Shown one piece after another: positions 36,201-63,166 of a stretch of DNA of 64,000 nucleotides. This DNA is from a virus. The stretch is from the IMG/VR virus record IMGVR_UViG_3300027733_000050, positions 1 through 64,000 of that record. One strand, given 5' to 3'. Position 1 is the stretch's first letter. Each line of letters opens with the position of its first letter. The notes beneath the pieces were generated by a model. The model worked only from the letters and a program-made list of their open reading frames with translations. It searched no databases and had not been told where the DNA came from. A program made the position numbers and the translations under genes.

Positions 36201-39200
36201 TTGGGGAGTGGGTAAACGAGGATCCACAGTCTGTAAAAGAAAGAGCAGAGAAGTTAATGAACGATCCTGCTTGGACACAGGTAGGAATGAATCCTTTTAG
36301 ACACAGCTGGTTTTATGACAAGGCTAACGGCAATCCTGTAATATCTGCTGACGAGGTTATTCAAGTAGGTGCTTTGGTATTGGCAAAGAATGTTGTGATG
36401 GGATCGATTACTGACAAGCGTTTTGCTACTAAAAATGACAAGGGAGAACAGATATTCTTCCGTAAAGAAGACAAGGTAAAGGGAAGCTACTTCGAGCCTG
36501 CGATGACAACTGACTCTAAGGGCAACTATGTATTCTTCCACTTCTCTACGGCTCCGTTGAAGTCATTGATGAAGGGTATCGACTCAAGAAAATACTACAG
36601 CACCAGAACATCGAGAGATGAGAAGGGATTGCAGTACGGTGTAGCATCTTACTATACAAAGCCTACAGACAGCGAGAATGTTGTTGGTGGGGATAAGTAT
36701 TATGTAACGATATCTCCTGACAAGGTATACCCAATGGATCTTGATCCTAACGGATACAGAGCTGCGGCAGAGAAGAAGATTAAGAAGAACACACCGTTCA
36801 GAGAGTCTAAGATCAGCAAGGAGATTGCTAATGCAGCTGCACGAGATGGCTACGAGATGGCCGTTGGAGAGTGGAGCTTTGACAGATCTGGATTAACCAA
36901 GAGCGAGATCCCTGAGTTCAGAGGTGATGCATTGGTTCCGTTGAAGCCTACAGAGATTACAGGCAAAGAAAAGTTCAAGACAGGAGAAGAAAGAGGTATC
37001 AAGACCGAGCATCCAGACAGAGCTAGATTGGCATTCAATCAGCAGGTAGAGGATCTTGCATCTGATATTGACTCTTATAAGTCTAGCAAGGGTAAGTTCG
37101 ATGATGCCTATGAGATCGCATCTACTGTTATGGTATACGGCGGTATCGTAGAGGATTACGGAACACCTAACCAGAGAGTAAGACCTCTTACAATGAAAGA
37201 GTTCGACACCATGACCAAGGGATTATCTCCTAAGCTAAAGCAAAGAGCTGAGAAGATAAGAGGTCAGATGGAGGATAATCAAGGTATGTCCTTCAGAATA
37301 GATGAAAAAGAAATAGAAAAACCTACAAAAAATGCTGATGGATCATTAAGATATAATTTTAATTTAATACAAAATGGGAAAAAGGTTGGTAATGTTGTTT
37401 ATGATATTTTAAAAAATAAATTAATAATCCAATCAATTAATTCTTTTAAAAATGGAATCGGTAAATTATATATTGAACAATTAAAAAATAAATATCCAGA
37501 CAAAAAAATAACTGGTTATTCAACTGTATCAGCAAGAGGGTTTTGGGAAAAAATGGGGGCCATTTTTAATGAAAGCGATAAACAAGAAAATTATGATGAT
37601 GACAGTGGCGATTTGACTGGATTTGAACTTCCAAACGAAATCTCCTTCAGAATAGACGAAAACTATAAGAACAATATTGAAAAGCAGTTAGGAAAGTTTG
37701 ACGAGCAAAATAAAAATAAAAAATTTCCATCTGCATTAGAGGTTGCTAAGTACGTATTACCGAAAGATATATTTGATCGATACAGAAATCTTTATGAGAT
37801 GGCTGCTAGAAATAATATTCAAGTTACTATTGACTTAGAGAGGTTGCCGTATAACGCAGTTGCAACTTACTCATATGGATTTATAAATCTTAGTAAATTA
37901 AAATCCTCTTATAATATAAATAACTACGAAGAGTTTGCTGAGGTTTTTAATCATGAAATTATTCATGGATTGTTAAGTAAAGGAATTGATGGATTTACAA
38001 AGAAATTTGATTTTCATAACAATTTACAAAACATAATGCAAGCTGTAATAGATAACTCTGATTCTGCAAGTGAAAATGTTAAAGCAATAATATCTTATAT
38101 TGTAGAGGCTGGTGAGGAATTTAAGGTAAAAGATTATTATAATGCAACAAAGGAAGAATCAGAATCGGGTAATTATAGAACTGTTAATGATTTAGAAGAG
38201 TTAATTACATATGCATTTACGAATACTGAATTTGCAGAGTTCTTAGATTCTATACCAGCATCAAAAGATATTGATGTAAAAGGTAAATCTATTTTTCAAC
38301 AGTTAAAAAATATTATTAGAGACTATATAAAAAAATTAGTTAAGGGGCCTACAGCACTTGATGAAATTAATTCTGTTTTAGATAAATTTTTGGATACAGC
38401 TTGGAATGAGCAAGACATCGCTGAAAGAAATAGCCAGTATAATTGGGGACTAAAGTTTAATGCTGACGAAATCTCCTTCAGAGCAGACATGGGCCAGAGA
38501 AGGATCACCAGCAACCCAAGATTAATGGCGATGCTGTATGGTGCTAACTTCAAGGACTTGAGAAGAGCTATCAATATATCTCCAGACTCATTCTATACTC
38601 CACAAAAATATTCACAGCTGAAGCCACAGATAGCAAACATGTCGGATGCAGAGTTGCTAGCAGCTATCGATGTAGATACAGCATTAGAGGATATATTCCG
38701 TAGCACAGATGGGCCAATCGTTGGTCTTGCTTTTATAGAGTACATCAACAGACTAAAGAATCTGATAGCAAACACTACAGATCAAAATGATATTGATCTT
38801 TACGAAGAGTTAATTCAAAATGCTTACGATTCTGTTGCTCCATTTACAACGAAGGTTGCTCAGATTTTAAGACAACTTGGAGAGATCAAGTCAACGATTA
38901 AGAAAGATGAGGTTCAGTTTTATCTTGACATGATCGAGTCATTGATTAATGCAAATGGTTATATGATTAATGAGGATCATAGGGATGCATTAAGAGGAAT
39001 CATAGAGGTTGTATTAAACAGCAAGAAGAACTATACAACATTGTTCCAGGATTTAGTAAACAAAGGTAGTGGTGTTACGGCACAGGACATACAAGATCTA
39101 AACATGGCAGAGGTTGAACTACAGAACGCTAACGCTGCATTGAACATGATCGTGGCATTCTTATCGCCTCCATCATCAAAAGATTTCTGGTCTGGAGTGT

Positions 39201-42010
39201 TAAGAGGGAACCTAATGTCTGTACGAAGTGCATTGACTGGATTATACTCTAACTTAATAAACATGGGAGTGTTTAAATACAGAAATCTTGTACAGTCTGT
39301 ATTGAGTATTCCATTTGCTATACTTAAAAAAGCTGGCATAAATACTTTTGGACTAGAAAAATATCAGTTTTTTAATACTCCAATTGTATCAAACATTAAG
39401 TACGGATTATTCCTAGATGTATTACAGGATGCTATTGTTGGTGTTACAAAGGCTATTGCTACATTAGGAAAGATAATGATCGGAAAGGAATCGTTTAGAG
39501 GGTTCCTAGATAAATCACCTACAGCCAACAGAGTATTTAATATTATAAAGTATGGTTCTTCAGCACTTGAGGGAGGATCTCCTGTGATATTAGATAAGAG
39601 TAACCACACGATGACAGCTATCAGAAAAGCAATGACATCTAAAGGTGGTAAGACTACACTGAATATTAGAGGAATGAAGATGGATGTAGCTAGCTCATTT
39701 AAGAGAACTAGTTTCAGCAAATGGTTTAAAGTTAACTATCCAGGAAGTGATTACAATTCATTATCTGCAAAGGATAAAAAGATTATTCAAGACGAATTTT
39801 TCAACGATCCTAAGGCTGCTGTACCAACAATAGGTGATAAGGCTGCTGTGTTAGGAAGAGCATTTATGGCCGTTAACTCTGAGTTTGTATTTAGATTAGT
39901 AGCCTTATCGGATTACCTTCCCAAGACTTATGCAAACAATATAGAGATGACTAGACTTGCTCAGACTCTTGGACTAGATGAGAATCAAACTCAGCTATTC
40001 ATGAGGGATCCTGCAAAGTACATAGAGATCATGTCAAATGTATTAACTCCAGAGGCTTTAAACTTTTGGATTGATACAGTAGCAGAGGTTACAGTTACAA
40101 AGGATACAGGATTAGGAAAGGCATCTACAGCTTTCGTAGAGGGCATAAAAAATTATGTTCCTATGAAATTAATGAGAGCATTCCCAGGATTAAGTGATAA
40201 CAAGGCGTTTATAAATGCTGTAGGTGTTTGGCAATTTATTATTGACTCTATTGTTCCGTTTGTTAAGATACCTATGAATGCTATCAGTTTAACAGCGGAC
40301 TTCTTAATTCCTAGTAAGCCGTTTATGAAGGCAATCTATTTTAGTGCATTAGCAATTAAAAATAAAGGAACAGATCAAGCTGAAGCATACGCATTGTCTG
40401 CAATGAAAAACTACTCTATGACCGTTGTAGCATTAGGTTTAAGATCATTAGCAGTTGGTTTGGTGTCAGTTCCAGGACTAGTTGTATTAGCACCAGGGAA
40501 GGATGATGACGATGAGAAGAAGAAAATGAAATCTAAGTTCTCAAGAATGTCAATCAATATCGATGCATTAAAGAGATACTTTACACCAGGAGAAGATCCT
40601 TCATATAAGGATGGTGATCAATACCACTCATTAACAGCATATGGTGTATTAGGGATTTTAATTTATAACTATGCATCAATCAATGACCAAGCTAACAAAA
40701 AATATTACGATGAAATAAGCAAGGCTCCTAAAAACTTATTGCCAAGCGAGGGTATTACATCAAATCCTTTTGATATGTCTACAAGTGGATTTTTAGAGCT
40801 AGAATTAAAGGCATTTGAGGCTAGTCAGTTCTTTATCGATCAGTCATGGTTCGTTGGTATTAATTCAGCGTTGCAGGGATTAACTGGTGGTGAAAAAGGA
40901 GCAGATCAGTTTGTAAATAATTACATAGGAACATTATTGTCTACGTGGTGGGGATTCTCTTCACATGCTCAACAAATATCTGATATGTACAGAGAGATAA
41001 CTGGTAAGCCAGTATTTGATGTAACGCTCCCAACAGAATTGCAGAATGTGAAAAAAGAAGGGTATCCAGGAGTATTTAGTGACCGTATATGGAACAACAT
41101 ATTTAAGAAGAATGAACTTATTCATGATGCTATTATGAAATCTCCAGAGGATAGTGAATACATTAAGTTTAGTATGTATGGTGAGAAAATGAGTCCAGTA
41201 GCAGGAAATACTAAAAATAAATTAGATGTTGCTTTGTCTATCGCAGCTCCAGCTAGAAGGGTTACTCCAAACTTAACCAAGGAAGAAAGATTTTACATGG
41301 CTGTATATGAAAACAAAAATAAGATTAATATTCCAGGGTATGAATTAAGTTTAGCTGAACCAACTATGAATAAAACAGAGAAGTTAAAAGTGTTTTATAA
41401 GGTGGCTGAGTTTGGTCAGGTAGCTGAGACAATAAATGTAATGATCATGCCAAAGGAATACAACAAGATTAACGAAATGGCAGGTGATGCCCTAAGGGAT
41501 TTACACTCTACTTTATTAAGCGAACAAGGTTTATTAGACTTTGAGGTAAGAGGAAAAGTTATAAGCCCAGAAGATATTATGTCCAAAAACTGGGGCAATA
41601 CTAAAGAGGTTGCAAATGTAAGAAATGCAATTGCTGTATCTATTTCAGAGGGGAATAAATTATTAAACACTTTCCTAAAACCATGGGAACTGTTTAGTAA
41701 ACCTGTAACTAATTATATTGGTAAGGAGGAGGCTGCTGTTATTCAAGAGGTAAGATCACTAATTGATACTAGACTATTAACTTACAAGGTTTTAAATCCA
41801 AATACAGGTAAAATGGAAATGCTTTCAAGTTATTTAGTGACTAACCCTGAGTTATCTAATAAATTATACAACCTAGCAAAAGAATCAATCCTATTGTATT
41901 TAAAGGCAGCTAGTGAAGCTATAAATAAAAACGATAAGTATAGAGAGCTATTAGACAACCCAGAAATAACAATAGAGCAAGAAAAAGCTAGAAAAGAAGG
42001 TAATTTTTAA
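33266..42010 (+). CDS. giant modular virion protein (2914 aa) with a recurrent ISFR linker motif, a GNAT-like module and a zincin-like HExxH module
   Basis: SFR tripeptide in a conserved context ((D/E/G)(I/M/P)SFRx(D/E)E) occurs seven times (nt about 34523, 34934, 35651, 37283, 37634, 38465, 39485) plus an ISFQ variant at 33418; GNAT-like KNGIGKLYIEQL...SARGFWEKMGAIF (nt about 37300-37620); FNHEIIHGL at nt 37952-37966. Confidence 0.6.
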   Translation: MAKPCIVKYKGKEYSVEQFSAMLHDGLLNNLIESGAIDQNKLKGDLKLLQDNEISFQLENIFLNSPDKLSSLTEVANFLNDFIKANKLFEDKIENVADDIVVKEFANHISKELKAWDKVKGSKYIGFYDEDIPVRLNPELQKFAEKRYGRKLQDFEVSLYHIVSAFASPSADPKFDSSKGLEVFDKYMKTGVLTGYTDKQATEWEKNAKGKKVDTGRLKFDKNGNPVMKQVAKAYAVDSLEKVKTVIDKFNGDVEKAVNWLFSIHSYQELSDIMNLPTKGEKALSENEYLSKSDGGYGVFAVTGVKLGSYILNRVGNYSTVTKDMWYARTMARLAGESLLEDGEAIKSPWSLTKANLRKRVLADKAFAIVAKKLKTTPAIIQQRIWDFEKRLYEQLGTVEKEGYASEGFIKKAKEILGGDISFRFEKSGTATIKNAPKGTYLNIGLLKGETEELISIDEVLSNLPSDVKVVKQRQVTGTEPTLALQISRKMSDQEMEDFRNATAQMAIPQLSDGKGVIHGTQEWGEFNPEFFVLPNNKQLSSIEGVEITSVEPNEEGPSFRRDDIEATAKALEGVGLTNIWQAVIGNRKYGKPVRVKEDGKTFTIKRTDPATNEPYGFELGDGSPYIRTESGEYTNGDSTYESWNQFLQINEGSGVLDGISDLNDTTEAEVRAREKDLNVSFNTLSDLGFWNKASNIVANFLGYDSPMQAQEQSKEDTEIWKNLVSKAVDLFNSGKIENIVDFYSKVFGMSKEEATDRSGYKTPFTYLSEQYYDAKDNGSNPNLVKAVEDQIGEQGGISFRLTEPSGVSYNETLKMVGLTPSSLEEYAKTIKVTQRQKRIPEAQKAAEEYRKGNITQEQYIKTVREKQPITPLKSVPVIPSLKRVVTSLATDKVEKGIIGLTKEVPNGTLVGLRLDIPAYDSYDTWVVSVHDGANRTSKGGSIGYGQAAVIKNVTFGAEPKATLAIAVDKAKAPIARMFGEWVNEDPQSVKERAEKLMNDPAWTQVGMNPFRHSWFYDKANGNPVISADEVIQVGALVLAKNVVMGSITDKRFATKNDKGEQIFFRKEDKVKGSYFEPAMTTDSKGNYVFFHFSTAPLKSLMKGIDSRKYYSTRTSRDEKGLQYGVASYYTKPTDSENVVGGDKYYVTISPDKVYPMDLDPNGYRAAAEKKIKKNTPFRESKISKEIANAAARDGYEMAVGEWSFDRSGLTKSEIPEFRGDALVPLKPTEITGKEKFKTGEERGIKTEHPDRARLAFNQQVEDLASDIDSYKSSKGKFDDAYEIASTVMVYGGIVEDYGTPNQRVRPLTMKEFDTMTKGLSPKLKQRAEKIRGQMEDNQGMSFRIDEKEIEKPTKNADGSLRYNFNLIQNGKKVGNVVYDILKNKLIIQSINSFKNGIGKLYIEQLKNKYPDKKITGYSTVSARGFWEKMGAIFNESDKQENYDDDSGDLTGFELPNEISFRIDENYKNNIEKQLGKFDEQNKNKKFPSALEVAKYVLPKDIFDRYRNLYEMAARNNIQVTIDLERLPYNAVATYSYGFINLSKLKSSYNINNYEEFAEVFNHEIIHGLLSKGIDGFTKKFDFHNNLQNIMQAVIDNSDSASENVKAIISYIVEAGEEFKVKDYYNATKEESESGNYRTVNDLEELITYAFTNTEFAEFLDSIPASKDIDVKGKSIFQQLKNIIRDYIKKLVKGPTALDEINSVLDKFLDTAWNEQDIAERNSQYNWGLKFNADEISFRADMGQRRITSNPRLMAMLYGANFKDLRRAINISPDSFYTPQKYSQLKPQIANMSDAELLAAIDVDTALEDIFRSTDGPIVGLAFIEYINRLKNLIANTTDQNDIDLYEELIQNAYDSVAPFTTKVAQILRQLGEIKSTIKKDEVQFYLDMIESLINANGYMINEDHRDALRGIIEVVLNSKKNYTTLFQDLVNKGSGVTAQDIQDLNMAEVELQNANAALNMIVAFLSPPSSKDFWSGVLRGNLMSVRSALTGLYSNLINMGVFKYRNLVQSVLSIPFAILKKAGINTFGLEKYQFFNTPIVSNIKYGLFLDVLQDAIVGVTKAIATLGKIMIGKESFRGFLDKSPTANRVFNIIKYGSSALEGGSPVILDKSNHTMTAIRKAMTSKGGKTTLNIRGMKMDVASSFKRTSFSKWFKVNYPGSDYNSLSAKDKKIIQDEFFNDPKAAVPTIGDKAAVLGRAFMAVNSEFVFRLVALSDYLPKTYANNIEMTRLAQTLGLDENQTQLFMRDPAKYIEIMSNVLTPEALNFWIDTVAEVTVTKDTGLGKASTAFVEGIKNYVPMKLMRAFPGLSDNKAFINAVGVWQFIIDSIVPFVKIPMNAISLTADFLIPSKPFMKAIYFSALAIKNKGTDQAEAYALSAMKNYSMTVVALGLRSLAVGLVSVPGLVVLAPGKDDDDEKKKMKSKFSRMSINIDALKRYFTPGEDPSYKDGDQYHSLTAYGVLGILIYNYASINDQANKKYYDEISKAPKNLLPSEGITSNPFDMSTSGFLELELKAFEASQFFIDQSWFVGINSALQGLTGGEKGADQFVNNYIGTLLSTWWGFSSHAQQISDMYREITGKPVFDVTLPTELQNVKKEGYPGVFSDRIWNNIFKKNELIHDAIMKSPEDSEYIKFSMYGEKMSPVAGNTKNKLDVALSIAAPARRVTPNLTKEERFYMAVYENKNKINIPGYELSLAEPTMNKTEKLKVFYKVAEFGQVAETINVMIMPKEYNKINEMAGDALRDLHSTLLSEQGLLDFEVRGKVISPEDIMSKNWGNTKEVANVRNAIAVSISEGNKLLNTFLKPWELFSKPVTNYIGKEEAAVIQEVRSLIDTRLLTYKVLNPNTGKMEMLSSYLVTNPELSNKLYNLAKESILLYLKAASEAINKNDKYRELLDNPEITIEQEKARKEGNF

Positions 42011-42022
42011 TATATTTGTATC

Positions 42023-42616
42023 ATGGCACTTACATTAAAAGCAAGCGTAATAGCTGAAGAAACAGGAACATTTACGGTACAGGATACCACAGGAGTATAT
42101 ACATCAAATAATCCAACTGGATATGGGGCTCCTAATCCACAGATTATATACTTTACATCTGCTGATTTGACTGTATCTGTACCAGAACCAGAAACATTTC
42201 TTCCAGCACCTACGCCAGTTACATACAGCATAAATATGTACCCAACGCTTCCAAATACTGGATCACCGTTATACTACATAGACTATTCTATGTTGGGAGG
42301 AAATGCTGCAAATAAATGTCCTGATGGAGTATATGAGTTTACATACGAGGCTTATGACGATGACAATGGTGACTTGTATACTTGGAACGGTAGCGTATTG
42401 ATGTATGCTAATACATTATGTTGCTTGGCTAACCTAGCTATTGCTGGAACCAACTCAGGCTGTGGCTGTGGGTGCGGAAGCAAGATGAGCAGATTTGAAA
42501 AGGGTATGTTAATGCTTGAGGCTGCTAAGTACGCTACGTCTTGTAATAACACTACAGCTGCTGCAAAGGCTTTGCTAGCTGCTAGTGAGTTGTGTAACGG
42601 ATGCAAAGATTGTTAA
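42023..42616 (+). CDS. hypothetical protein with Cys-rich C-terminus (197 aa)
   Basis: ORF track; C-terminal GCGCGCGS...CNGCKDC cysteine cluster. Confidence 0.45.
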   Translation: MALTLKASVIAEETGTFTVQDTTGVYTSNNPTGYGAPNPQIIYFTSADLTVSVPEPETFLPAPTPVTYSINMYPTLPNTGSPLYYIDYSMLGGNAANKCPDGVYEFTYEAYDDDNGDLYTWNGSVLMYANTLCCLANLAIAGTNSGCGCGCGSKMSRFEKGMLMLEAAKYATSCNNTTAAAKALLAASELCNGCKDC

Positions 42617-47782: not shown

Positions 47783-47850
47783 TGGAGGATATAGGACTCG
47801 AACCTATTACTAGTGGATTACCACTGCTTTACCTGTTAAGCTAATCCTCC
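47783..47850 (-). ncRNA. tRNA-like element (degenerate/pseudo-tRNA) between the M15 peptidase and serine recombinase genes
   Basis: The minus strand reads GGAGGAT-TA-GCTT-AACAGGTA-AAGC-A-GTGG-TAAT-CCAC-TAGTA-ATAGG-TTCGAGT-CCTAT-ATCCTCC-A: perfect 7-bp acceptor, D-arm and T-arm, but the anticodon arm is about 4 nt short (4-nt loop). Confidence 0.45.
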
Positions 47851-55520: not shown

Positions 55521-55807
55521 GGGTGAAATGTTTTATTGATTTCCTTTTTAATCTGCTCTAGCCAGTAATCATCCCAACACATTCCCATATCCTCAACAAA
55601 CGATTCCCAATTGTCTTCCCTAGTGTGATATTGCTGATACAAGTCGCTACCAACAACCTTGTCAACAATATAAATTAGTATGTCTGCGATACCTAACGTA
55701 CCATGGAAGTTGTCTCTAATGTAACTACTACTACACAAGTCTTCCATATAAAGCCATCCCGACAATGTCAGTAATAACTTTTTGTCTTTTTCTAGTTGCT
55801 TATCCAT
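55517..55807 (-). CDS. small acidic protein (96 aa)
   Basis: ORF track. Confidence 0.4.
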   Translation of the reverse strand: MDKQLEKDKKLLLTLSGWLYMEDLCSSSYIRDNFHGTLGIADILIYIVDKVVGSDLYQQYHTREDNWESFVEDMGMCWDDYWLEQIKKEINKTFHP

Positions 55808-56162
55808 TTCTTTCCGATATTATATTGTAAATAATATTTTCTAAAATTGCTGACCATAAATCATCCTCGTATGATTCGTTGTATCTCTTGAGTACCTCTT
55901 CCATTTCTTCCACCGACAAATCCTTATTCAAAATGTTGCACACGTTTACCACATCCTCGTAGCTGATGGAAACAAGTGGCTTGATGCGTTGCTTGTAAAT
56001 AGTCTTTAGAGTATAATCTTTTTGTAGGTACACACACACCTCGTTGTATTCCTCGCAGTAGTGGATGTCAAAGATGTCTGCACTAAACCAAAATTCGGTC
56101 TCATCGGGAGTGATTTCATATCGATAATCTACTCCATTGTAATTGAAATTAATCGTTGTCAT
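55800..56162 (-). CDS. small acidic protein (120 aa)
   Basis: ORF track; preceded by the promoter-like motif at 56171-56185. Confidence 0.45.
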   Translation of the reverse strand: MTTINFNYNGVDYRYEITPDETEFWFSADIFDIHYCEEYNEVCVYLQKDYTLKTIYKQRIKPLVSISYEDVVNVCNILNKDLSVEEMEEVLKRYNESYEDDLWSAILENIIYNIISERNG

Positions 56163-56163
56163 A

Positions 56164-56556
56164 TTACATTAATTTAAGGGTTTCTAAAAGTTGTTTAAGT
56201 CCTATCACTTCGATGACGAATCTTCTATCGTCAATGTTACCATCCTTTAATTCTTGCTGAAGTCCATTAATCTGATTAATGACCATATCGTAAGGATGGG
56301 TGTTGTCAGTGTCAATGTCATTAATCAATTCCACATCTACAGGATCGTATTCTTCATCGGTAATAATACCATCACTATCCAAACAAATCCACCTAGGGAT
56401 GTAACCACATTGGTCATAGATGTCTCTTATAGACTTGTTAATCTTACCACTTGTCTTGAATTCGTTGAGTGTAGCATAGCCTAACTCTTTTATTTCCGAT
56501 GAGTCGCTATAGTACCAATCTATAAAACGACTTGCTAAAATTTTATTTGATTTCAT
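56164..56556 (-). CDS. small acidic protein (130 aa); the only gene here with a canonical Shine-Dalgarno sequence
   Basis: ORF track; AGGAGGA lies 7 nt upstream of the ATG on the coding strand. Confidence 0.45.
   Translation of the reverse strand: MKSNKILASRFIDWYYSDSSEIKELGYATLNEFKTSGKINKSIRDIYDQCGYIPRWICLDSDGIITDEEYDPVDVELINDIDTDNTHPYDMVINQINGLQQELKDGNIDDRRFVIEVIGLKQLLETLKLM
56171..56185 (-). promoter_or_regulatory. conserved early-gene motif copy (reverse strand, consensus TTTAACCCCTTAAAA) upstream of gene 55800-56162
   Basis: aatttaagggtttct on the + strand, 9 nt from the start codon. Confidence 0.4.
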
Positions 56557-56574
56557 AATGTGTCCTCCTATTAA

Positions 56575-57075
56575 TTATAAACTACGTTTTTTAAGATGAA
56601 CGATATGTTTTGCTATATCTTCCAACAACGCATCGGTATCTTCTAATAGATTATCTTGTCGGTAGTCAGCAGATAGTTCAAAGCCACCCTTGTGCAATCC
56701 ATCCTCGTTCTCGTACCGACCTAAATATTTATGTGCATACCATTCCTTATGCTCCCAACAATTATATCTTTTATCTAACTCTCCAATAAATCTTATAGTC
56801 AAGCGACAATAATCTTTATGCTCATACACTTCTAACTCGTAACCGAAGTTATCGAGTAGGTCGGTGACATCAGCCGTTAGCCGATGTAGTAACTCATCGT
56901 TGACAATCTTAGCCATCCTAGTCTGCTCTCTAAATTGTTCTTTCTTGATGGATATTTCATCTAGCTGACTATTGATGAAATTTAATAGGTCATTGTTGCT
57001 GACCTTCTTTGACTTGTTGATTCTATCGAATTCGCTTATCAGTGAGTTGATAATGTTTTGCTGATTGTTAGTCAT
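56575..57075 (-). CDS. hypothetical protein (166 aa)
   Basis: ORF track; motif at 57087-57101 upstream. Confidence 0.45.
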   Translation of the reverse strand: MTNNQQNIINSLISEFDRINKSKKVSNNDLLNFINSQLDEISIKKEQFREQTRMAKIVNDELLHRLTADVTDLLDNFGYELEVYEHKDYCRLTIRFIGELDKRYNCWEHKEWYAHKYLGRYENEDGLHKGGFELSADYRQDNLLEDTDALLEDIAKHIVHLKKRSL

Positions 57076-57086
57076 CTTGTTTATTG

Positions 57087-57101
57087 TTTTAAGGGGTTTA
57101 T
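57087..57101 (-). promoter_or_regulatory. conserved early-gene motif copy upstream of gene 56575-57075
   Basis: ttttaaggggtttat on the + strand. Confidence 0.5.
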
Positions 57102-57102
57102 A

Positions 57103-57654
57103 TTATTGTTCAGTTCTTACAAAGTATTTGTTGCAAAATTCTACTACCTTTTTCACTACCTCTTCACTGCACTCTAGGTGGATTACCTTGTCATTCATAA
57201 ACTCTACACCATCGGGATTAACTCTGAAGTATAAACTTCTTGCATGAACATTGTATCCGTATTCGCTATCTACACTTCCATTACGAATTTGAATATCATC
57301 AATGTTAAAATACTTAGATACTTCTGAAATCAATTCTTTTACCCACGCAAGATGGCTTGCACTTTTTAAAGCATCATCATTGCTCTTAAGATACTTTTTT
57401 ACTAGAGTGTTTACTGAATCTGAACTTGGTTTCATAACTTTTAGTTTTAAGGGGTTAACTGCTTTTAAGAAATTTACGATGCAGTCATATTCCGAATGCC
57501 TTGCATCATTGTACTTGCTTTCGGAGAAGTCAGCATACAAATGCTCTGCTACTTCCCATTGGATGTCTAGTGCCTCATCCTTGTCTATGTTACCGAAATT
57601 AATTGCTAGGTGTAACATCGTGTACACTGAATAGCCATCTTGTGATTGTTTCAT
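57103..57654 (-). CDS. hypothetical protein (183 aa), possibly with a nested in-frame internal start
   Basis: ORF track; the promoter-like motif occurs both upstream (57657-57682) and internally (57445-57459) 10 nt before an in-frame ATG (MKPSSD). Confidence 0.45.
   Translation of the reverse strand: MKQSQDGYSVYTMLHLAINFGNIDKDEALDIQWEVAEHLYADFSESKYNDARHSEYDCIVNFLKAVNPLKLKVMKPSSDSVNTLVKKYLKSNDDALKSASHLAWVKELISEVSKYFNIDDIQIRNGSVDSEYGYNVHARSLYFRVNPDGVEFMNDKVIHLECSEEVVKKVVEFCNKYFVRTEQ
57445..57459 (-). promoter_or_regulatory. conserved early-gene motif copy inside ORF 57103-57654, upstream of an internal in-frame ATG
   Basis: ttttaaggggttaac on the + strand, 10 nt from the internal ATG at 57433-57435. 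Confidence 0.45.
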
Positions 57655-57656
57655 AA

Positions 57657-57682
57657 TTTTAAGGGGTTTTAAGGGGTTAAAC
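57657..57682 (-). promoter_or_regulatory. tandem double copy of the conserved early-gene motif upstream of gene 57103-57654
   Basis: ttttaaggggttttaaggggttaaac on the + strand. Confidence 0.5.
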
Positions 57683-57702
57683 TTATTCTATTAACGATAC
57701 TT

Positions 57703-58089
57703 CTAGCAATATATTACTTCTCCGAAGAAAATTGTTTGGATGATTACATCAGTGTCAGACACATCGTATTCCTCATTCAACACATTCATCAACTGATCGA
57801 TCGGTGCGTTGTTCATCCTTTCGTGGATGTCAGCTAGTGTTACGTAAAACACTTCTTCGCACTCTAGGTCATAGATGCCTAGCTTACCACCATCCTTTAG
57901 CATTTCCATCAGCACATCTTCGTAGCAAGGTGTGTTACCTTTGTACATTTCCATCAATTTACTCTTGCTCTGCTCGTAGGATTTCTTGCCATATATCCAC
58001 TGCAACGAGTGAATGTGAATGTCATTGTCGCATAGGCAATTGAAGAATACATCTTCTGCTTGTGCTTTACTTAATTGATACTTTGTCAT
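57703..58089 (-). CDS. hypothetical acidic protein (128 aa)
   Basis: ORF track; motif at 58100-58114 upstream. Confidence 0.45.
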   Translation of the reverse strand: MTKYQLSKAQAEDVFFNCLCDNDIHIHSLQWIYGKKSYEQSKSKLMEMYKGNTPCYEDVLMEMLKDGGKLGIYDLECEEVFYVTLADIHERMNNAPIDQLMNVLNEEYDVSDTDVIIQTIFFGEVIYC

Positions 58090-58099
58090 AAGATTATAG

Positions 58100-58114
58100 T
58101 TTTAAGGGGTTAAT
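58100..58114 (-). promoter_or_regulatory. conserved early-gene motif copy upstream of gene 57703-58089
   Basis: ttttaaggggttaat on the + strand. Confidence 0.5.
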
Positions 58115-58115
58115 G

Positions 58116-58340
58116 TTATTTAGAATAATGTAAGGAGCAATTACCACTCTCCTTGTTAGTGTAGATGTTGCATATCCATGCTTTGTAAAAACCATCAGCA
58201 CACGTGTACACTAGCTGATTGGTGTATGTTTCCGATGGATGATTGCCTTTGTCCTCTGATAGCACAAAGCCGTTGCTGATTAGATGTTTGATTTTAGAAT
58301 CTAAAGAATCAATGTCAAACCAAATTGAATTAGTGTCCAT
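58116..58340 (-). CDS. hypothetical small protein (74 aa)
   Basis: ORF track; degenerate motif at 58350-58364. Confidence 0.4.
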   Translation of the reverse strand: MDTNSIWFDIDSLDSKIKHLISNGFVLSEDKGNHPSETYTNQLVYTCADGFYKAWICNIYTNKESGNCSLHYSK

Positions 58341-58349
58341 AAGAATAAA

Positions 58350-58364
58350 GATTAAAGGTTAATA
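58350..58364 (-). promoter_or_regulatory. degenerate motif copy upstream of gene 58116-58340
   Basis: gattaaaggttaata on the + strand. Confidence 0.3.
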
Positions 58365-58474
58365 TTATTGTTTGTTAAAGGGAACTATCATTATTTCGTA
58401 TACCTAGGTTTAGCTTGTAAGCTACCCATAGGCAGAGGGGAATCATAACCTCTCCACCTAGGATTGCCATCATA

Positions 58475-58924
58475 CTAATTAATTTCCCAATCGAAATTCT
58501 CAACCATCTCATCAGTGTCATCATAATACAATTGTCCGTTGTTAATGTTTCTAGTAAAGGCTCTTCCGTTATACTTACCACTAGCAAAGAAGTGTGCATC
58601 CAAGTCCACATAGATTTCCATATCTAGGTAATTCCATTTGTCATCAGTAACTTGGAACTTCATCTTTGTACCTACCAACGATGCCACTAACTTGGTGTCG
58701 GTTTCTGCGTGTGGTTGTAACTTAAACACATCAATTACCTTGTATGCCCTAACATTATTGAACTCCATATTCTCGATGGTCATTGATAGGTATTGCCTAG
58801 TGTCATCTATCTGCTCTACACTATCTCCAACATTATTTTTAGATGCATCGTAGATTAATTGCTGACCTTTGCTTGGTGCAGTCATCCCTAGGATAACCGC
58901 TACCACTACTAATAATTTCTTCAT
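58475..58924 (-). CDS. secreted protein (149 aa)
   Basis: Signal peptide MKKLLVVVAVILGMTAPSKG. Confidence 0.45.
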   Translation of the reverse strand: MKKLLVVVAVILGMTAPSKGQQLIYDASKNNVGDSVEQIDDTRQYLSMTIENMEFNNVRAYKVIDVFKLQPHAETDTKLVASLVGTKMKFQVTDDKWNYLDMEIYVDLDAHFFASGKYNGRAFTRNINNGQLYYDDTDEMVENFDWEIN

Positions 58925-58965
58925 AGGATTAAATTTATTTATTGGTTAAACTGATTACTGATTAA

Positions 58966-59478
58966 TTATTGTTTACTCAACGCAGTGCCCCAGTTCGTGA
59001 ACACCACCTCGCCTCTGCTATTGCGTAGTCGGAACTTATACTTCGCACCTTGATACCATCCGCACATATTAATTGCACCATTGCCGTTACCCTGCGTTGT
59101 AAGGTCAGTGAACGTGTGGCCTAGGTATCTACCTGTCACATCTCCAACAAACCTAGTGCCATCCCATCGGTATACGATGGTAAATTCTGCACCACTCACT
59201 GCATCAGTAAAGCGGAATGTCTTACCAATTACTAGGTTAGGTGTAGGCATCTGACCATACACTAAATTCTGCACCTTCCACTTGTGGCAATACACCACAT
59301 TCAACCCTAGTGTGTCGCATCGGAAGTCTAACGTGTAGTCTAGACTATCTACCACGTTGCTAGTGTTGGATGCTCGGTTGCTAGGTTGCACCATACCCAA
59401 CTCATCATTTTCTTTCGTGCATGATGTAGCCATAACTACCATAGTTAACATTGCTACTAATTTCATTACTTGTTTCAT
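58966..59478 (-). CDS. lipoprotein (170 aa)
   Basis: Signal with lipobox MVVMATSC; motif at 59482-59503 upstream. Confidence 0.45.
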   Translation of the reverse strand: MKQVMKLVAMLTMVVMATSCTKENDELGMVQPSNRASNTSNVVDSLDYTLDFRCDTLGLNVVYCHKWKVQNLVYGQMPTPNLVIGKTFRFTDAVSGAEFTIVYRWDGTRFVGDVTGRYLGHTFTDLTTQGNGNGAINMCGWYQGAKYKFRLRNSRGEVVFTNWGTALSKQ

Positions 59479-59481
59479 AAC

Positions 59482-59503
59482 TTTAAGGGATTAAGGGTTA
59501 AAT
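59482..59503 (-). promoter_or_regulatory. double (degenerate) motif copy upstream of gene 58966-59478
   Basis: tttaagggattaagggttaaat on the + strand. Confidence 0.45.
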
Positions 59504-59955
59504 TAATTATTTTGTTCTTCGATGCAACTTCTTATTGCCTCTTCAATAGCATCTATTCTATTCCAACTTTTTAAAGTCTCTTCATTATCTCCATTGAATG
59601 TTTGTAACTCTTCATCAGTGTAACTTTCAAATCTTATTTTTAAAGAGTCATATGCTGATACTAGCACCGCACCTCTACCATCTAGGTGTTCGCTCTCGTA
59701 CCACTCATCATCATCCAATTCTTCCCACTGAGTGTGGTAGTACATTTCCTCATCGAAGAAGAAATCTAGTAACTCTTCATCATCATTGCAGTCAGTAGAT
59801 AACTTGCCTTTGCAGTTAACCCACTCTATTGTGCGTAGGTGTTCTAGCAAGTGTGCCCTAGTGCTGAAGTACATTTCTCCATCTCCGAAACAAAAGCCTT
59901 CGTTGATTCCGTTGTTTGTTGCATCGCATCTGCGAGCGAATTTAAATCTTTTCAT
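59503..59955 (-). CDS. highly acidic protein (150 aa)
   Basis: ORF track; D/E/W-rich (DNA-mimic-like composition); motif at 59965-59979 upstream. Confidence 0.45.
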   Translation of the reverse strand: MKRFKFARRCDATNNGINEGFCFGDGEMYFSTRAHLLEHLRTIEWVNCKGKLSTDCNDDEELLDFFFDEEMYYHTQWEELDDDEWYESEHLDGRGAVLVSAYDSLKIRFESYTDEELQTFNGDNEETLKSWNRIDAIEEAIRSCIEEQNN

Positions 59956-59964
59956 AACGATATA

Positions 59965-59979
59965 TTTTTAGGGGTTTAT
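59965..59979 (-). promoter_or_regulatory. motif copy upstream of gene 59503-59955
   Basis: tttttaggggtttat on the + strand. Confidence 0.45.
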
Positions 59980-60006
59980 ATATTACTAACGTGATTGCTT
60001 ATCCGT

Positions 60007-60327
60007 TTATTGTGCCTTGGGTAAAGAATATCCTTGGCTTTCTAAATTATCAAACATTACTTTGAATGCCTTATACATGGACTTCTTATAAGCCTCAGTT
60101 TGATGCTCGAAAATTCTGCTATACATCATGCTTGTGATTGTTACAAACTGCATCTCGGCTTGGTATGAAAGGAAAGCATAGGTCTCGCCTCTAGATAAAC
60201 TATCTACCAATTCTTGTAGACTACCGATTGCTAACACTTCCTTGTTTGGATGCGTGAAATTCTTTTCTGCTGATGCTTTGATGTGTGCATCTGCAACCGC
60301 TTTGATTTCTTTTGTGATACGTTTCAT
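60007..60327 (-). CDS. hypothetical protein (106 aa)
   Basis: ORF track; motif at 60332-60351 upstream. Confidence 0.45.
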   Translation of the reverse strand: MKRITKEIKAVADAHIKASAEKNFTHPNKEVLAIGSLQELVDSLSRGETYAFLSYQAEMQFVTITSMMYSRIFEHQTEAYKKSMYKAFKVMFDNLESQGYSLPKAQ

Positions 60328-60331
60328 AACC

Positions 60332-60351
60332 TAGGGGATTAAGGGGTTTAT
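60332..60351 (-). promoter_or_regulatory. double motif copy upstream of gene 60007-60327
   Basis: taggggattaaggggtttat on the + strand. Confidence 0.45.
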
Positions 60352-60386
60352 ACTACTAACGTGAATTGTGAATTGTTTATTGTGTA

Positions 60387-60581
60387 CTATTGTAACTTTG
60401 CTATTTGCTCTAGTGTTGGCTTGTTGCCATTAACTCTAACGTAGTATTCGCTGAATGTCCACTTACGTTTAAAGTTGCGTGCATGGTCGAATGATTTGAA
60501 TACCTTGGTGATGCTAGTTGACCATCCATTTCTACCCTCGTTTACAAAGGTGATTTCAATGTTTAGATCGGTGGTGTTCAT
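60387..60581 (-). CDS. hypothetical small protein (64 aa)
   Basis: ORF track. Confidence 0.35.
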   Translation of the reverse strand: MNTTDLNIEITFVNEGRNGWSTSITKVFKSFDHARNFKRKWTFSEYYVRVNGNKPTLEQIAKLQ

Positions 60582-60778
60582 AGGTCATTCAGTTTATTTG
60601 TTATCATAATTGCTAGCACTGATGATGTCCCTAGGGTAAACAATAAGAACATCTCTAGCATCGGTGTGTTCGGTGTCACCTTTGAGTTTGCTACATCTAC
60701 GATTAGGAATAGTGATGCTGATGCTAATACTACCAATCCAATTGCGATTAGTGTGCCGATTAATTTGTCTAGTCTCAT
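60578..60778 (-). CDS. small membrane protein (66 aa)
   Basis: Two hydrophobic helices (LIGTLIAIGLVVLASASLFLIV; LLFTLGTSSVLAIMI). Confidence 0.4.
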   Translation of the reverse strand: MRLDKLIGTLIAIGLVVLASASLFLIVDVANSKVTPNTPMLEMFLLFTLGTSSVLAIMITNKLNDL

Positions 60779-60782
60779 GATA

Positions 60783-60960
60783 TTAGTCGTGTAAAGGGTT
60801 GATTAAATTATTTTCGTAGCGGTAAGCCTCTTCTTTAGCTATAATTTTACCAAGGATAACCAAGGCTTTTACCTTTTCTTCAGTGCTTACATTGTCTGAT
60901 TTAGCTATGTTCTTTAGTAACTGAACATAAAGGTCGATTTGCTTTTTTAATTGCTCATTC
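60783..60960 (-). CDS. small helical protein (59 aa), not in the ORF track
   Basis: ATG at 60960 (reverse strand), TAA at 60783-60785; MNEQLKKQIDLYVQLLKNIAKSDNVSTEEKVKALVILGKIIAKEEAYRYENNLINPLHD; motif at 60973-60987 upstream. Confidence 0.35.
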
Positions 60961-60972
60961 ATAACATTAAGA

Positions 60973-60987
60973 TTTTAAGGGTTAAAC
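60973..60987 (-). promoter_or_regulatory. motif copy upstream of small ORF 60783-60960
   Basis: ttttaagggttaaac on the + strand. Confidence 0.45.
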
Positions 60988-60997
60988 TATATTCTAG

Positions 60998-61040
60998 AGC
61001 GGAGTGAGGGTTCGAACCTCTTATCCCTAATGACTCCGCT
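60998..61040 (-). other. tRNA-like minihelix (acceptor stem AGCGGAG/CTCCGCT plus T-arm-like GAGG-TTCGAAC-CCTC) with no D or anticodon arms
   Basis: The minus strand reads AGCGGAG-TCATTAGGGATA-AGAGG-TTCGAAC-CCTCA-CTCCGCT; the T-loop consensus is kept but only 12 nt sit where about 40 nt of D/anticodon arms would be; located between two minus-strand genes. Confidence 0.35.
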
Positions 61041-61062
61041 GACCACCTTTAATTCACTCGTA

Positions 61063-61530
61063 CTATTTACTATTTACAAATAGCCTATCTTTATGTTTCA
61101 TTTGTACACTATAGCTAGTCACTCTAGGTACTTCAACCTCTGACATATGTTCTAGGTCAAAGATTGATTTTTGTGAGTTAGCCATACCTAAACTTAAGGC
61201 ACTTTTAAGTGACCATTTTCTATCGAAATCGTCATCCTTTTCTAGCAACATTACAACATCGAAGTGGTAAACTTTGTCGCTATCTAACCACCCACCGAAA
61301 GCTAATTTGATGTCTAGTTTCTTCCAATCTGACTCAACTTCCATCATTTCATTGTATACTTGGATGCAGTGTTCAGCACCCTCTAGGTTGTGACTATTCA
61401 AAGTCTGTTTTACTCCGACTACGAAGTAGTTACCGCTTACATCGTTGCCTTGTGCATCCATTGTGAAACCCATCGGGTTTTGTTCTGCTTTACGCATCAT
61501 GTCTGATGCAGTTACTGAAGTTGTGTTCAT
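61063..61530 (-). CDS. hypothetical protein (155 aa)
   Basis: ORF track; motif at 61540-61553 upstream. Confidence 0.45.
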   Translation of the reverse strand: MNTTSVTASDMMRKAEQNPMGFTMDAQGNDVSGNYFVVGVKQTLNSHNLEGAEHCIQVYNEMMEVESDWKKLDIKLAFGGWLDSDKVYHFDVVMLLEKDDDFDRKWSLKSALSLGMANSQKSIFDLEHMSEVEVPRVTSYSVQMKHKDRLFVNSK

Positions 61531-61539
61531 GATTATAAG

Positions 61540-61553
61540 TATTAAGGGTTAAT
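61540..61553 (-). promoter_or_regulatory. motif copy upstream of gene 61063-61530
   Basis: tattaagggttaat on the + strand. Confidence 0.4.
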
Positions 61554-61580
61554 AATTAGTTAACGTGATTACTAGTTGGT

Positions 61581-61796
61581 TTATTGCTTGCCTACTGACA
61601 TTGCACCTAGGATTGCGACTACAAACTGAAGACTAAATACTATAACTGCTGACTGCTCTGTTACTGCTCCAAGTAATCCAATCGTTGCTACTAGTGTGCA
61701 AGTGATTGTTAGTTTAAGTTTGTTTGTCATGGCGTTGTTATCGTTGGTGTTCGGTATAATAACAGCGAAACTACATCGGATATTGTGCTTTGTCAA
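61581..61796 (-). CDS. small membrane protein (71 aa)
   Basis: Hydrophobic helices (LTITCTLVATIGLLGAV; VIVFSLQFVVAILGAM). Confidence 0.35.
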   Translation of the reverse strand: MTKHNIRCSFAVIIPNTNDNNAMTNKLKLTITCTLVATIGLLGAVTEQSAVIVFSLQFVVAILGAMSVGKQ

Positions 61797-61889
61797 GCAT
61801 TATTTTGTAAGTGATTGATTATCAGCATAAAAACTTTCAATAATTCTTTACAATGTGGTTGTGTGTATGGATGCAATGAACTAAGTCTA

Positions 61890-62520
61890 TATTACTGCGT
61901 GCGTGTACACTCGCAGGATACCATTACGTGCGTGCGTGCGTATGTGCGTGCGTTCTTTGTTAATAGGTTGCAATAAATTCTATGTGCCAAAATCGTGCCA
62001 AACTATTGCTATTCCCAAAATGGGAAACTTGTCCCAAAATGGGAATTTACGTTCATTTATTTTCATTTATACGTGTGGTTGTCACAACATTTGTACGTAC
62101 AACAGTTGTATATACAACAATCGATTGCTTGTCTACTGCGTGTGCGTGTGCGTTTGTCTACTGCGTGCGATTGTCTACTGCGTGTGCGTGCGTGACTTGA
62201 TGCAAGGCTTGATAGGTGTATTAAGCCTAGGTAATTTGTCTCGTAAGCCTAGGTGTAACGCAATGAGCCTTAATCATTTGCATCTGCATCTAGGAGTGGA
62301 AATCGGATGGCTTTTGTTTTTACTTTCTTCGTTGGTGGCAACTAACGTCAACACATAACGCTTTTGCATTTGCCTCTGCGTTCGTGTGTGTGGAGGGGGT
62401 GTTTTTTTTCTTCCTTGCGTCCACCTATATGCTACGTATACTAGATCACACCTGCAATTTTAGAATTTTTAGAGGGCATTACCCTGGCCTGGGTGGGGGG
62501 GAATTGTTTTACAGGGGAGG
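61890..62520. repeat. GC-enriched non-coding repeat island: (CG/TG)n alternating tracts, 3x GTCTACTGCGTG, 2x palindromic TTCCCAAAATGGGAA, 2x TAAGCCTAGGT, 2x TTCATTTAT, TTGTATATACAA palindrome and G7 tracts
   Basis: Seen directly; no credible ORF (the track ORFs here are Cys/Val-rich artefacts of the repeats); composition differs from the flanking AT-rich DNA. Confidence 0.55.
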
Positions 62521-62684
62521 ACATTCTATTAGCCTTTATAGTGGTTATAGGAAGTATTGTATATCAGTTACTTGTATTGTAGCCAGTATAAATATAGCAT
62601 GGATCTTTAAACTATAGATAACATTAGTAATCAATTACTTACAAAACAGTAGTATGATCTGAGGAATAAGTTTAAACGTAATTA

Positions 62685-63165
62685 ATAACTGATAATCAAT
62701 AACTTATATATACAACATTACATAACTGAAAGTAAAAGTATAGTACATAGTAAAAATATAAAAATCGTTAGTAAAAGGTATAAAATACATTATTGTATAA
62801 AATAAGGGGGTATAGGGGTAATATAGGGAATCCTGGGTTTCGATATACAGCATGGCCCTAGATATACTGATAATCAGCTACTAATTCAAAAATAAGATCG
62901 AGTTGCCAGAAAAACCCGAAAATTAACTCATTGATTATCAGGGAGAAATTCCATGAAAAGATGTTCTCCATGAGTATCAATTAGTTACGTAAAAAACAGG
63001 CGTTAGGTATAATTCTGGCACACAAATTGCATGCAGATCCAGCAAGAAACGACTGCAAAAACGATGAAAACAGCGTTCCATGGTATAATTCTGGCACACG
63101 ATTTGCAATAAAAATCTAAAAACAAAGTAAAAAAAATAACCAAATTCACAACTAATTGATTATCA
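62685..63165 (+). promoter_or_regulatory. control region upstream of the RHH gene: four copies of the palindrome CTGAT(A/T)ATCAG (about 62687, 62868, 62931, 63156) and a duplicated 25-bp promoter-like element GGTATAATTCTGGCACAC(A/G)A(A/T)TTGCA (63009, 63085)
   Basis: Seen directly; TATAAT-containing direct repeats 76 bp apart; palindromic operators flanking them; the last operator overlaps the RHH start codon. Confidence 0.45.
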
Positions 63166-63166
63166 G

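Follow-up and report, generated by a model that had tools for sequence, protein, structure and literature searches.

The closest described counterpart of the element reported here is the A-rich initiation region of the Bacteroidota that works without a Shine-Dalgarno (SD) sequence (the 'group B' of GeneMarkS-2; Wegmann 2013; Baez 2019), which lies at a short, fixed distance before both first and internal cistrons and is G-poor, with a TAAAA-type core, A at -12/-13 and no SD (PMC6028130, PMC6847099). Adenines at positions -12 and -13 have been measured to promote initiation in Flavobacterium johnsoniae (PMC6847099). The non-SD ribosome-binding site of Flavobacterium has the consensus TAAAAA, ~7 nucleotides (nt) from the start, and the authors of GeneMarkS-2 argued that a Bacteroidetes motif standing at short distance before internal cistrons cannot be a promoter (PMC6028130). 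A second precedent comes from T4-type phages, in which a short motif, PeSL (a sigma-70 early promoter plus a stem-loop terminator), flanks each small gene of the hyperplastic region, and insertions, deletions and replacements end at the motif (PMC2839356, PMC4122927). Here we describe, in 64,000 nt of a viral genome (IMG/VR record IMGVR_UViG_3300027733_000050, positions 1 to 64,000; hereafter, the window), a ~23-nt unit that precedes 13 small open reading frames (ORFs) of a hypervariable, leftward block of genes, which we take to be early from their position. The unit shares with the Bacteroidota region its G-poor, A-rich character, its position and the host phylum. That region, however, is a loose A-rich composition found at most genes, whereas the unit carries a sharp extra AACCC(Y) at -21 to -16, limited to 13 genes (56.1-61.6 kb) of one temporal/variable class and recurring in some phage lineages; only the A-rich part is general. 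We favor, with evenly balanced confidence and without regarding it as proven, the hypothesis that the unit may be a stereotyped leader from which the translation of internal cistrons is initiated and, at the same time, a mark of the junctions of gene cassettes, that is, a variant of the non-SD initiation region of the Bacteroidota combined with PeSL-like cassette behavior.

The motif proper, with the 12-base consensus T-W-AACCC-Y-T-W-AA, makes up the 5' half of the unit. Its core, AACCCYTWA, has 12 matches in the window compared to 2.42 +/- 1.5 in dinucleotide shuffles (12 was reached in 0/100), and all 12 fall within 5.4 kb of the minus strand (56174 to 61550). A weight matrix trained only on the copies of related phages (described below), and then run over the window with a cut-off of at least 12 bits, returned 10 distinct sites (13 with overlapping registers), every one of them within the block, vs. 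~2.8 sites in the shuffled window; no site was returned outside the block, on either strand, in the rest of the window. These results bear out the proposal, made in an earlier note that was based on the sequence alone, of a dedicated, strand-specific and block-restricted cis element tied to each small gene. All eleven positions listed in that note carry a minus-strand copy: those at 56174-56182, 57090-57098, 57448-57456, 58103-58111, 59968-59976, 60975-60983 and 61542-61550, a true tandem double (57660-57668 and 57670-57678), a degenerate copy (AACCTTTAA, 58352-58360), a full copy followed 10 nt on by a half copy (TCCCTTAA; full copy at 59491-59499) and another full copy accompanied by a half copy (TCCCCTAG; full copy at 60340-60348). 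Two further copies were found, one (AACCCTTTA, 60792-60800, also minus strand) within the preceding ORF and one, degenerate (TTTAACCAATAAA), ahead of the ATG at 58924. The longer consensus given in the note, TTTAACCCC, proved too strict, being no commoner than expected by chance across the window when one mismatch is allowed. In all, the block has ~17 small ORFs, 13 of them with the leader.

The unit is positioned relative to the start codon. In the window, the first A of AACC precedes the ATG by 20-23 nt (24 and 14 nt for the tandem pair), and the A run stops 9-12 nt before the ATG, in agreement with the previously noted spacing of about 10 nt. The repeat families reach 20-32 nt, start codon included, and the natural variants of the unit comprise CC, CCC or CCCC, tandem copies and one substitution by an SD. 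There is no inverted repeat at the motif, and a literature search for the motif sequence itself returned nothing relevant. To our knowledge, the 3' tail of the 16S rRNA is not complementary to the motif.

The window represents most of a ~68-kb podovirus-like phage with no DNA-level relative among deposited phages. Near-absent SDs, -7 boxes at the late genes and nearest protein matches to Flavobacterium phages establish that its host belongs to the Bacteroidota. The early proteins (155, 166 and 198 aa) had almost no homologues when used to find relatives, and a candidate contig, L098, was set aside as it has only one gene in common. A 173-aa protein encoded just across the adjacent non-coding region did have homologues, in contigs L245, L248, L251 and L252 (62-97% identity in this protein). 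These contigs share an architecture in which small leftward genes form a hypervariable run, and the motif stands in front of most of those genes. That is, searching related phages for the motif, as the earlier note had suggested, recovered the same arrangement in four ~68-kb relatives. Pooling four genomes gave 41 copies before 38 start codons, in which AACC stands 20-22 nt from the ATG in 31/41 copies, the others being at 19 or 23 nt or forming tandem pairs at 24 and 14 nt. Anchored on the ATG, the profile shows A/C at -20, CCC at -19 to -17, TT, and AAA at -14 to -12 (A at -13 in 36/38 starts and at -12 in 27/38), followed by a weaker half-repeat, YTTAA, at -9 to -5 (A at -6 and -5) and by R-T-T-ATG-AAA (T at -1 and -2). 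G is nearly excluded from -23 to -5 (0-1 per position across the 38 starts), and there is neither conservation upstream of -23 nor a conserved upstream box among the pooled copies. The block, its leaders and the candidate promoter at its head are as follows.

55800..61796, minus strand: hypervariable block of ~17 small ORFs at the head of a leftward operon, 13 of them with the motif leader (from the ORF list and upstream sequences).
61528..61552, minus strand: leader TTAACCCTTAATACTTATAATC-ATG of gene 61063-61530, 20 nt from AACC to ATG (the distance given for the leaders below as well).
60960..60985, minus strand: leader TTAACCCTTAAAATCTTAATGTT-ATG of gene 60783-60962, directly after a tRNA-like hairpin, 21 nt.
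60776..60802, minus strand: degenerate leader TCAACCCTTTAC...-ATG of gene 60578-60778, with the motif within the coding end of the preceding ORF, 22 nt.
60325..60350, minus strand: leader TAAACCCCTTAATCCCCTAGGTT-ATG of gene 60007-60327, a full copy plus a half copy 10 nt on, 21 nt.
59953..59978, minus strand: leader TAAACCCCTAAAAATATATCGTT-ATG of gene 59503-59955, 21 nt.
59476..59501, minus strand: leader TTAACCCTTAATCCCTTAAAGTT-ATG of gene 58966-59478, a full and a half copy, 21 nt.
58922..58949, minus strand: degenerate leader TTAACCAATAAATAAATTTAATCCT-ATG of gene 58475-58924, 23 nt; the degenerate form recurs at the orthologous gene in L245, L248 and L251.
58338..58362, minus strand: degenerate leader TTAACCTTTAATCTTTATTCTT-ATG of gene 58116-58340, 20 nt.
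58087..58113, minus strand: leader TTAACCCCTTAAAACTATAATCTT-ATG of gene 57703-58089, 22 nt.
57652..57680, minus strand: tandem double TTAACCCCTTAAAACCCCTTAAAATT-ATG of the gene starting at 57654, copies at 24 and 14 nt; also present in L245 and L251.
57433..57458, minus strand: leader TTAACCCCTTAAAACTAAAAGTT-ATG (ATG at 57435), within ORF 57103-57654 and in its frame, the two cassettes not being separated by a stop.
57073..57100, minus strand: leader TAAACCCCTTAAAACAATAAACAAG-ATG of gene 56575-57075, 23 nt.
56160..56184, minus strand: leader GAAACCCTTAAATTAATGTAAT-ATG of gene 55800-56162, with the motif within the preceding ORF, 20 nt.
61766..61796, minus strand: candidate host sigma-A promoter for the whole block, TTGACA-N17-TAGTTTCG (equivalent to TTG-N20-TAnnTTnG), conserved in all four genomes.

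We favor a role in translation because the spacing is tied tightly to the start codon, and because the unit agrees with the initiation regions of the Bacteroidota in its A run (-12 to -14) and its exclusion of G; the A-rich core at -12/-13, the lack of an SD and the scarcity of G that define those regions were found at the 38 starts. In its 3' half (TTAAAA, ~10 nt ahead of the ATG), the motif is the known SD-less initiation signal of the Bacteroidota, and it occupies internal operon junctions of only 20-30 nt. The modal length of the 5' untranslated region (UTR) in Bacteroides thetaiotaomicron is 23 nt (PMC7366714), equal to the length of the unit. Leaders with the motif are predicted to be unpaired with a probability of 0.62-0.67, compared to 0.56-0.62 for the other genes and 0.50 for random positions. 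Moreover, no intergenic TAnnTTTG was found on the minus strand between 55.8 and 61.7 kb (the sole match, at 59155, is within a coding region), and the block has no intergenic terminators and no intergenic hairpins other than one tRNA-like element. The box of the promoter at the head of the block reads TAGTTTAG in the relatives, for an overall TTGACA-N17-TAGTTT(A/C)G, a near-consensus sigma-A sequence whose box agrees with the Bacteroidetes -7 box at 7/8 positions, and we regard it as a candidate for the promoter of the block. Separately, the window lacks, at ~61740-61766, ~480 nt that are present there in all three aligned relatives.

According to the proposed model, host RNA polymerase would produce one polycistronic early messenger RNA (mRNA) from the sigma-A-like promoter at ~61766-61796, and every internal cistron would then require a landing site of its own, unstructured, free of G and with A at -12 to -14. 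The unit, a 23-nt leader of the form T-W-AACCC-Y-T-W-AAA-nn-YTTAA-n-R-TT-ATG-AAA and of the SD-independent Bacteroidota type, with the motif as its 5' half, would supply one. We infer that ribosomes, possibly via bS1, are the readers of the unit, that a single transcript covers the block, and that cassettes recombine at the motif. Between the promoter and the translational signal offered as possibilities in the earlier note, the translational one fits the data better, and the promoter is unsupported (see below). The claim that the genome lacks SDs is nearly right, with two exceptions (AGGAGG before the ATG at 56556 and AAGGAGGAAG before 52341). A resemblance to a phage translation signal is also worth mentioning as a lead. 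The epsilon enhancer of T7 gene 10 lies ~21-23 nt before the AUG and acts, in T7, on translation and not on transcription. Epsilon (UUAACUUUAA) and the unit are both of phage origin and have a near-identical frame, UUAAC-YYY-UUAA (PMC9590205); epsilon, however, occurs once, next to a strong SD and in an SD-using host, as opposed to 13 genes, no SD and an SD-blind ribosome here.

The motif was also found outside this lineage. In the Bacteroides phage Bacuni_F1, a siphovirus, there are 3 copies, each 21-22 nt before an annotated start (the genes for the major capsid protein, a DUF2815 protein and g49), and the motif is also carried by a family of HK97-type capsid genes that are related to that of Bacuni_F1. 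Contig L119 has at least 5 copies ahead of small genes, including a tandem double that is near-identical to the double of the window at 57652..57680 despite the two phages being unrelated (its second copy is AACCCTTTA), and contig L003 has three copies. In L119, one copy has a canonical -7 box, TACATTTG, 34 nt upstream and lies, therefore, inside a 5' UTR. No protein is common to the window phage, L119, L003 and Bacuni_F1, which argues that whatever reads the motif is supplied by the host. In broader searches, the exact 14-mer TTAACCCCTTAAAA was found just before an ORF at 32/120 IMG/VR sites, with ~10 of the viral matches representing one capsid-gene family and hence not being independent, and at 19/120 GTDB sites; all the genome cases with 8-14 nt spacing and a known organism were Bacteroidota, and in three chromosomal cases a -7 box directly preceded the 14-mer.

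Several observations weigh against the translational hypothesis. A scrambled sequence that also ends in TTAAAA (TCACTCACTTAAAA) was start-associated at 17/120 sites vs. 25/120 for the motif (8-14 nt, p = 0.23), so that only the 3' half is tied to a known signal. Furthermore, AACCCYTWA preceded a start at just 1/36 sites in an unbiased 1-Mb sample of IMG/VR, and the AACCC core was not start-associated in Cellulophaga phage phi38:1 or Flavobacterium phage 11b. We have consequently dropped the idea of a 14-mer conserved across the Bacteroidota, the scrambled control being nearly equal and AACCCYTWA unenriched in unbiased loci. The base at -3 is G or A rather than the favored A. Finally, the C-tract is dispensable for translation in this phage, whose ~60 other genes lack it and have plain A-rich leaders, start-stop overlaps or leaderless starts; the restriction of the tract to the early block could, therefore, reflect control of a specific gene class. 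In short, the generic signal resides in the TTAAAA half. The AACCC half is neither general nor confined to the lineage described here, being specific to certain lineages: the present one, three Bacteroidota phage sequences unrelated to it and a family of capsid genes.

Comparisons among the relatives bear on the second role assigned to the unit. Between relatives, the block has either 67-88% identity or no homology, and the genes downstream of 56100, which have no motif, are 88-95% identical. When the window was compared to L251 with blastn, 5/9 boundaries of homology blocks fell at most 11 nt from a motif start, whereas such windows make up ~5% of the block, and the boundary pattern against L245 was similar. 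These boundaries imply a unit consisting of the motif plus its ORF that is gained, lost or replaced as a whole, that is, a cassette; in this sense, and not in the one intended by the earlier note, every small gene is a unit of its own. Two motif copies (60792 and 56174) are contained in the 3' end of the ORF before them and a third (57448) is internal to a fused ORF, which means that the position of the motif is dictated by the downstream ATG and not by the upstream stop. In the fused case (57103-57654, minus strand), two cassettes make up one 183-aa ORF with no separating stop codon, and the internal motif with the ATG at 57435 would still let the second protein be made alone. Being the sole sequence common to otherwise unrelated cassettes, the unit would act as the junction for their gain, loss or swap between co-infecting relatives, in a phage that encodes RecT and a PDDEXK exonuclease, and this second role would keep it more uniform than translation alone would require. 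In this respect the unit parallels PeSL, but it has no recognizable promoter or stem-loop. One could go further and see the unit as a mere recombination scar or substrate (i.e., a microhomology linker kept by repeated exchange, with no role in expression), given that homology-block boundaries coincide with the motif, that the phage encodes RecT and a PDDEXK exonuclease, and that the repeat families take in the start codon. Such a linker, however, would have no need for an ATG spacing fixed within 1 nt, for the exclusion of G or for A at -13/-12, and it would not recur at the same spacing before genes for capsid and DNA-binding proteins in a Bacteroides phage unrelated to this one; we consider it highly improbable.

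Alternatively, the motif might be a compact promoter, used by host RNA polymerase with an unrecognized sigma or phage specificity factor, or by an undetected injected polymerase, with transcription starting a few bases before the ATG. Each cassette would then have its own mRNA with a very short leader (4-8 nt), similar to the early promoters of the T4-type hyperplastic region. The confinement of the motif to the first, hypervariable block of the operon and its strict strand specificity are consistent with this alternative, as is the parallel with the T4-like PeSL, whose repeated element holds an early promoter (PMC2839356, PMC4122927). The late genes point the same way, since they are already near-leaderless and a fixed promoter-to-ATG distance would be in character. 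Specifically, canonical TAnnTTTG -7 boxes are found ahead of the late genes 7216, 9620, 14435, 25117 and 42011, some of them with TTG 19 nt upstream, and the boxes at 7216-7230, 9620-9635, 14435-14450 and 42011-42025 (plus strand) end just 4-5 nt before the ATG, so that the late/structural mRNAs appear to be leaderless and the phage seems to use two modes of initiation, early vs. late. The phage also has crAss-like traits (a muzzle domain and giant virion ORFs), and the crAss-like phage phi14:2 uses an injected polymerase for its early genes and the host polymerase for its late genes; its early promoters, however, showed no common motif (bioRxiv 10.1101/2020.03.07.982082).

Several lines of evidence speak against a promoter. 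Only ~12 nt are conserved, with no second box, no conserved purine at a start site and G excluded, and the geometry is unlike that of Bacteroidetes -33/-7, extracytoplasmic-function (ECF) or sigma-54 promoters. ECF, sigma-54 and PM2 geometries were each considered and did not fit, the PM2 promoter being near-palindromic with two boxes (PMC7366714). The same motif, at the same spacing, occurs in a Bacteroides siphovirus that has no giant proteins and no proteins in common with the window phage, and the L119 copy mentioned above lies downstream of a canonical promoter. Promoters of the T7/T3 class are likewise short phage-specific sequences repeated before many genes, but they have ~23 conserved bp and an initiating G, as opposed to ~12 conserved positions, no G run, a tie to the ATG and no polymerase gene here. 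The match of ATTAACCCT to the 5' part of the T3 promoter, which would count in favor of a promoter, was rejected as a lead, since a polymerase, conservation downstream and an initiating G are all lacking. Nor does the locus resemble the promoters of crAss- or N4-like virion RNA polymerases, given the lack of D.D.D in the giant ORFs and of an N4-style hairpin at the motif. A hidden virion RNA polymerase was sought at the sequence level by regular expressions and by Pfam, PHROG, PDB-sequence and homologue searches, all with negative results: DxDxD is absent from the 1571-, 1779- and 2914-aa ORFs, none of the six-frame matches has an RNA-polymerase-like context, the Pfam, PHROG and PDB-sequence searches of the large ORFs gave no RNA polymerase match, and no ORF has the size of the T7 RNA polymerase besides the portal (789 aa) and Prim-Pol (880 aa, in the relatives). 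Hence, the phage-specific promoter for a distinct transcription machinery suggested in the earlier note is not supported, and we judge a compact promoter of any kind unlikely.

It is also conceivable that the motif is a control site at the RNA level: the operator of a conserved RNA-binding protein, the target of an antisense RNA with a G-tract, or a point of cleavage into monocistronic messages with 23-nt leaders. The whole early class would then be switched together, as with T4 RegA/RegB or the FopS small RNAs (sRNAs) of Bacteroides acting on susC leaders. A common sequence in the initiation region would allow class control of this kind, and FopS sRNAs repress translation by pairing with the leader; the leader TTAACCTTAAATC-N7-ATG, to which their seed (GATTTAAGGTTAAC) is antisense, closely resembles the motif (PMC11697453). 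The motif is indeed class-specific, being restricted to the early block although other genes are translated without it. In addition, a G-tract block on the plus strand (TAAGGGGGTATAGGGGTAATATAGGG, 62803-62828), within the conserved non-coding region, is complementary to the early-gene motif; the same site on the early strand has motif-like copies (ACCCCTA and ACCCCCTTA) that are not followed by a conserved ORF. The predicted pairing of the G-tract with the leaders (-16.4 kcal/mol) is better than that of shuffles (-10.9 +/- 1.7 kcal/mol; 2/200 shuffles reach it), although this control is lenient, as shuffling breaks the runs of G. The tRNA-like elements of the block would suggest RNA processing as well. 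On the other hand, no promoter box is found upstream of the G-tract strand, and no RNA-binding protein or nuclease has been identified in the block, so that a regulator comparable to RegA/RegB or FopS is a possibility here rather than a finding. The occurrence of the motif before the capsid gene of Bacuni_F1 does not fit an early-gene shut-off, and the lack of a phage protein common to the motif-using phages leaves unsupported the operator for a phage RNA-binding protein that the earlier note had considered, although a host factor might fill that role. We regard control at the RNA level as rather improbable. As a separate observation, gut metagenomes (loci L374-L493) abound in exact copies of the 23-mer TTAACCTTAAATCTAATACTATG, with a following ORF of <60 aa at 123/124 sites and of 60-299 aa at the other, and the complement of a terminator precedes nearly all of 45 inspected sites; these matches look like the antisense of FopS/GibS-type sRNA genes (PMC11697453). 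The metagenome scan for the susC-type leader that the FopS seed implies thus returned sRNA genes, not susC leaders, and the link to FopS is a lead.

A stronger version of the translational hypothesis, which we advance tentatively and consider unlikely, is that the unit would be a discrete, transplantable recognition element for SD-blind initiation in the Bacteroidota, read by the ribosome, by bS1 or by a conserved leader-binding factor. Taken as part of this joint proposal, it could represent the functional counterpart of SD/epsilon that some phages place at genes in need of strong and early translation, possibly with the class being switched off, in this phage, by an RNA from the conserved, complementary G-tract at 62803-62828.

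Two other features of the block are as follows.

56557..56575, minus strand: strong SD, TAGGAGGACACATT-ATG, in place of the motif, at the sole such cassette of the block (from the upstream sequence; the same in L245).
60999..61039, minus strand: tRNA-like minihelix with a 7-bp stem, GCGGAGT/ACTCCGC, and a GGTTCGAACCC T-arm, between two cassettes (from the sequence).

The second strong SD of the phage (AAGGAGGAAG, upstream of 52341, minus strand) is outside the block, and both SDs, in a phage of an SD-blind host, might be aimed at ribosomes free of bS21 (PMC13000453). The minihelix has an acceptor-like stem and a T-arm and lacks the D and anticodon arms; it was not called as a tRNA, and no Rfam family was found anywhere in the block. 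An equivalent is kept in the relatives (L245 ~7400, L248 ~7010 and L251 ~7440), and it may be a point of RNA processing. A tRNA with a four-base anticodon (gtga) was called just before the first early gene in L248 (8113-8189, minus strand) and L251 (8121-8197, minus strand), and none in L245. The window itself has a tRNA gene at 47783-47850 (minus strand), just upstream of the serine recombinase gene, that was identified by the Rfam model (54.9 bits) and missed by ARAGORN.

The 1.4-kb non-coding region next to the block (61800-63166) is better conserved among the relatives than the early genes and holds three iterons (TTGTCTACTGCGTG, 62129-62184) as well as five copies of the palindrome TGAT(T/A)ATCA (61816, 62690, 62868, 62932 and 63157); it is probably an origin plus operators. 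Two sigma-54-type sequences (TGGCAC-N5-TTGC; 63016-63030 and 63092-63106, plus strand), within a 26-nt direct repeat, face gene 63167 and the Prim-Pol replication module, and both are kept in all four related genomes with a few base changes. Elsewhere, the phage encodes a portal, a large terminase, a 1571-aa protein with a crAss muzzle domain, a small serine recombinase and an M15 peptidase, in addition to the RecT and PDDEXK exonuclease mentioned above, and two giant ORFs that are likely injected proteins. The 2914-aa ORF (33266-42010, plus strand) belongs to the polyvalent-protein class, with homologues carrying PF18760, PF18838, PF18857, PF18823, PF11697 and GNAT domains, while the 1779-aa ORF (27412-32751, plus strand), for which only close relatives are known, has an HExxH motif (TAFHEAFHG) and long coiled coils, features that would point to an ejection or polyvalent protein. 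The virion protein encoded at 22432-23736 (plus strand) is 62-66% identical to structural proteins of the cyanomyoviruses S-RIM12 and S-RIM8 and the SAR116 phage HMO-2011, and looks like a widely exchanged, marine tail-fibre-type module.

What has been known of how the ribosomes of Bacteroidota choose a start codon without SD pairing is a loose preference for A-rich sequence. The phage lineage described here offers 38 natural, sharply defined 23-nt leaders, with spacing fixed within 1 nt and placed before unrelated genes, that is, a ready mutational series, and the unit is a candidate for a strong internal-cistron leader in the engineering of Flavobacterium or Bacteroides. Further, an exchange of early cassettes that takes place at a translation signal instead of a promoter, as favored here, would extend the PeSL idea beyond T4-type phages.

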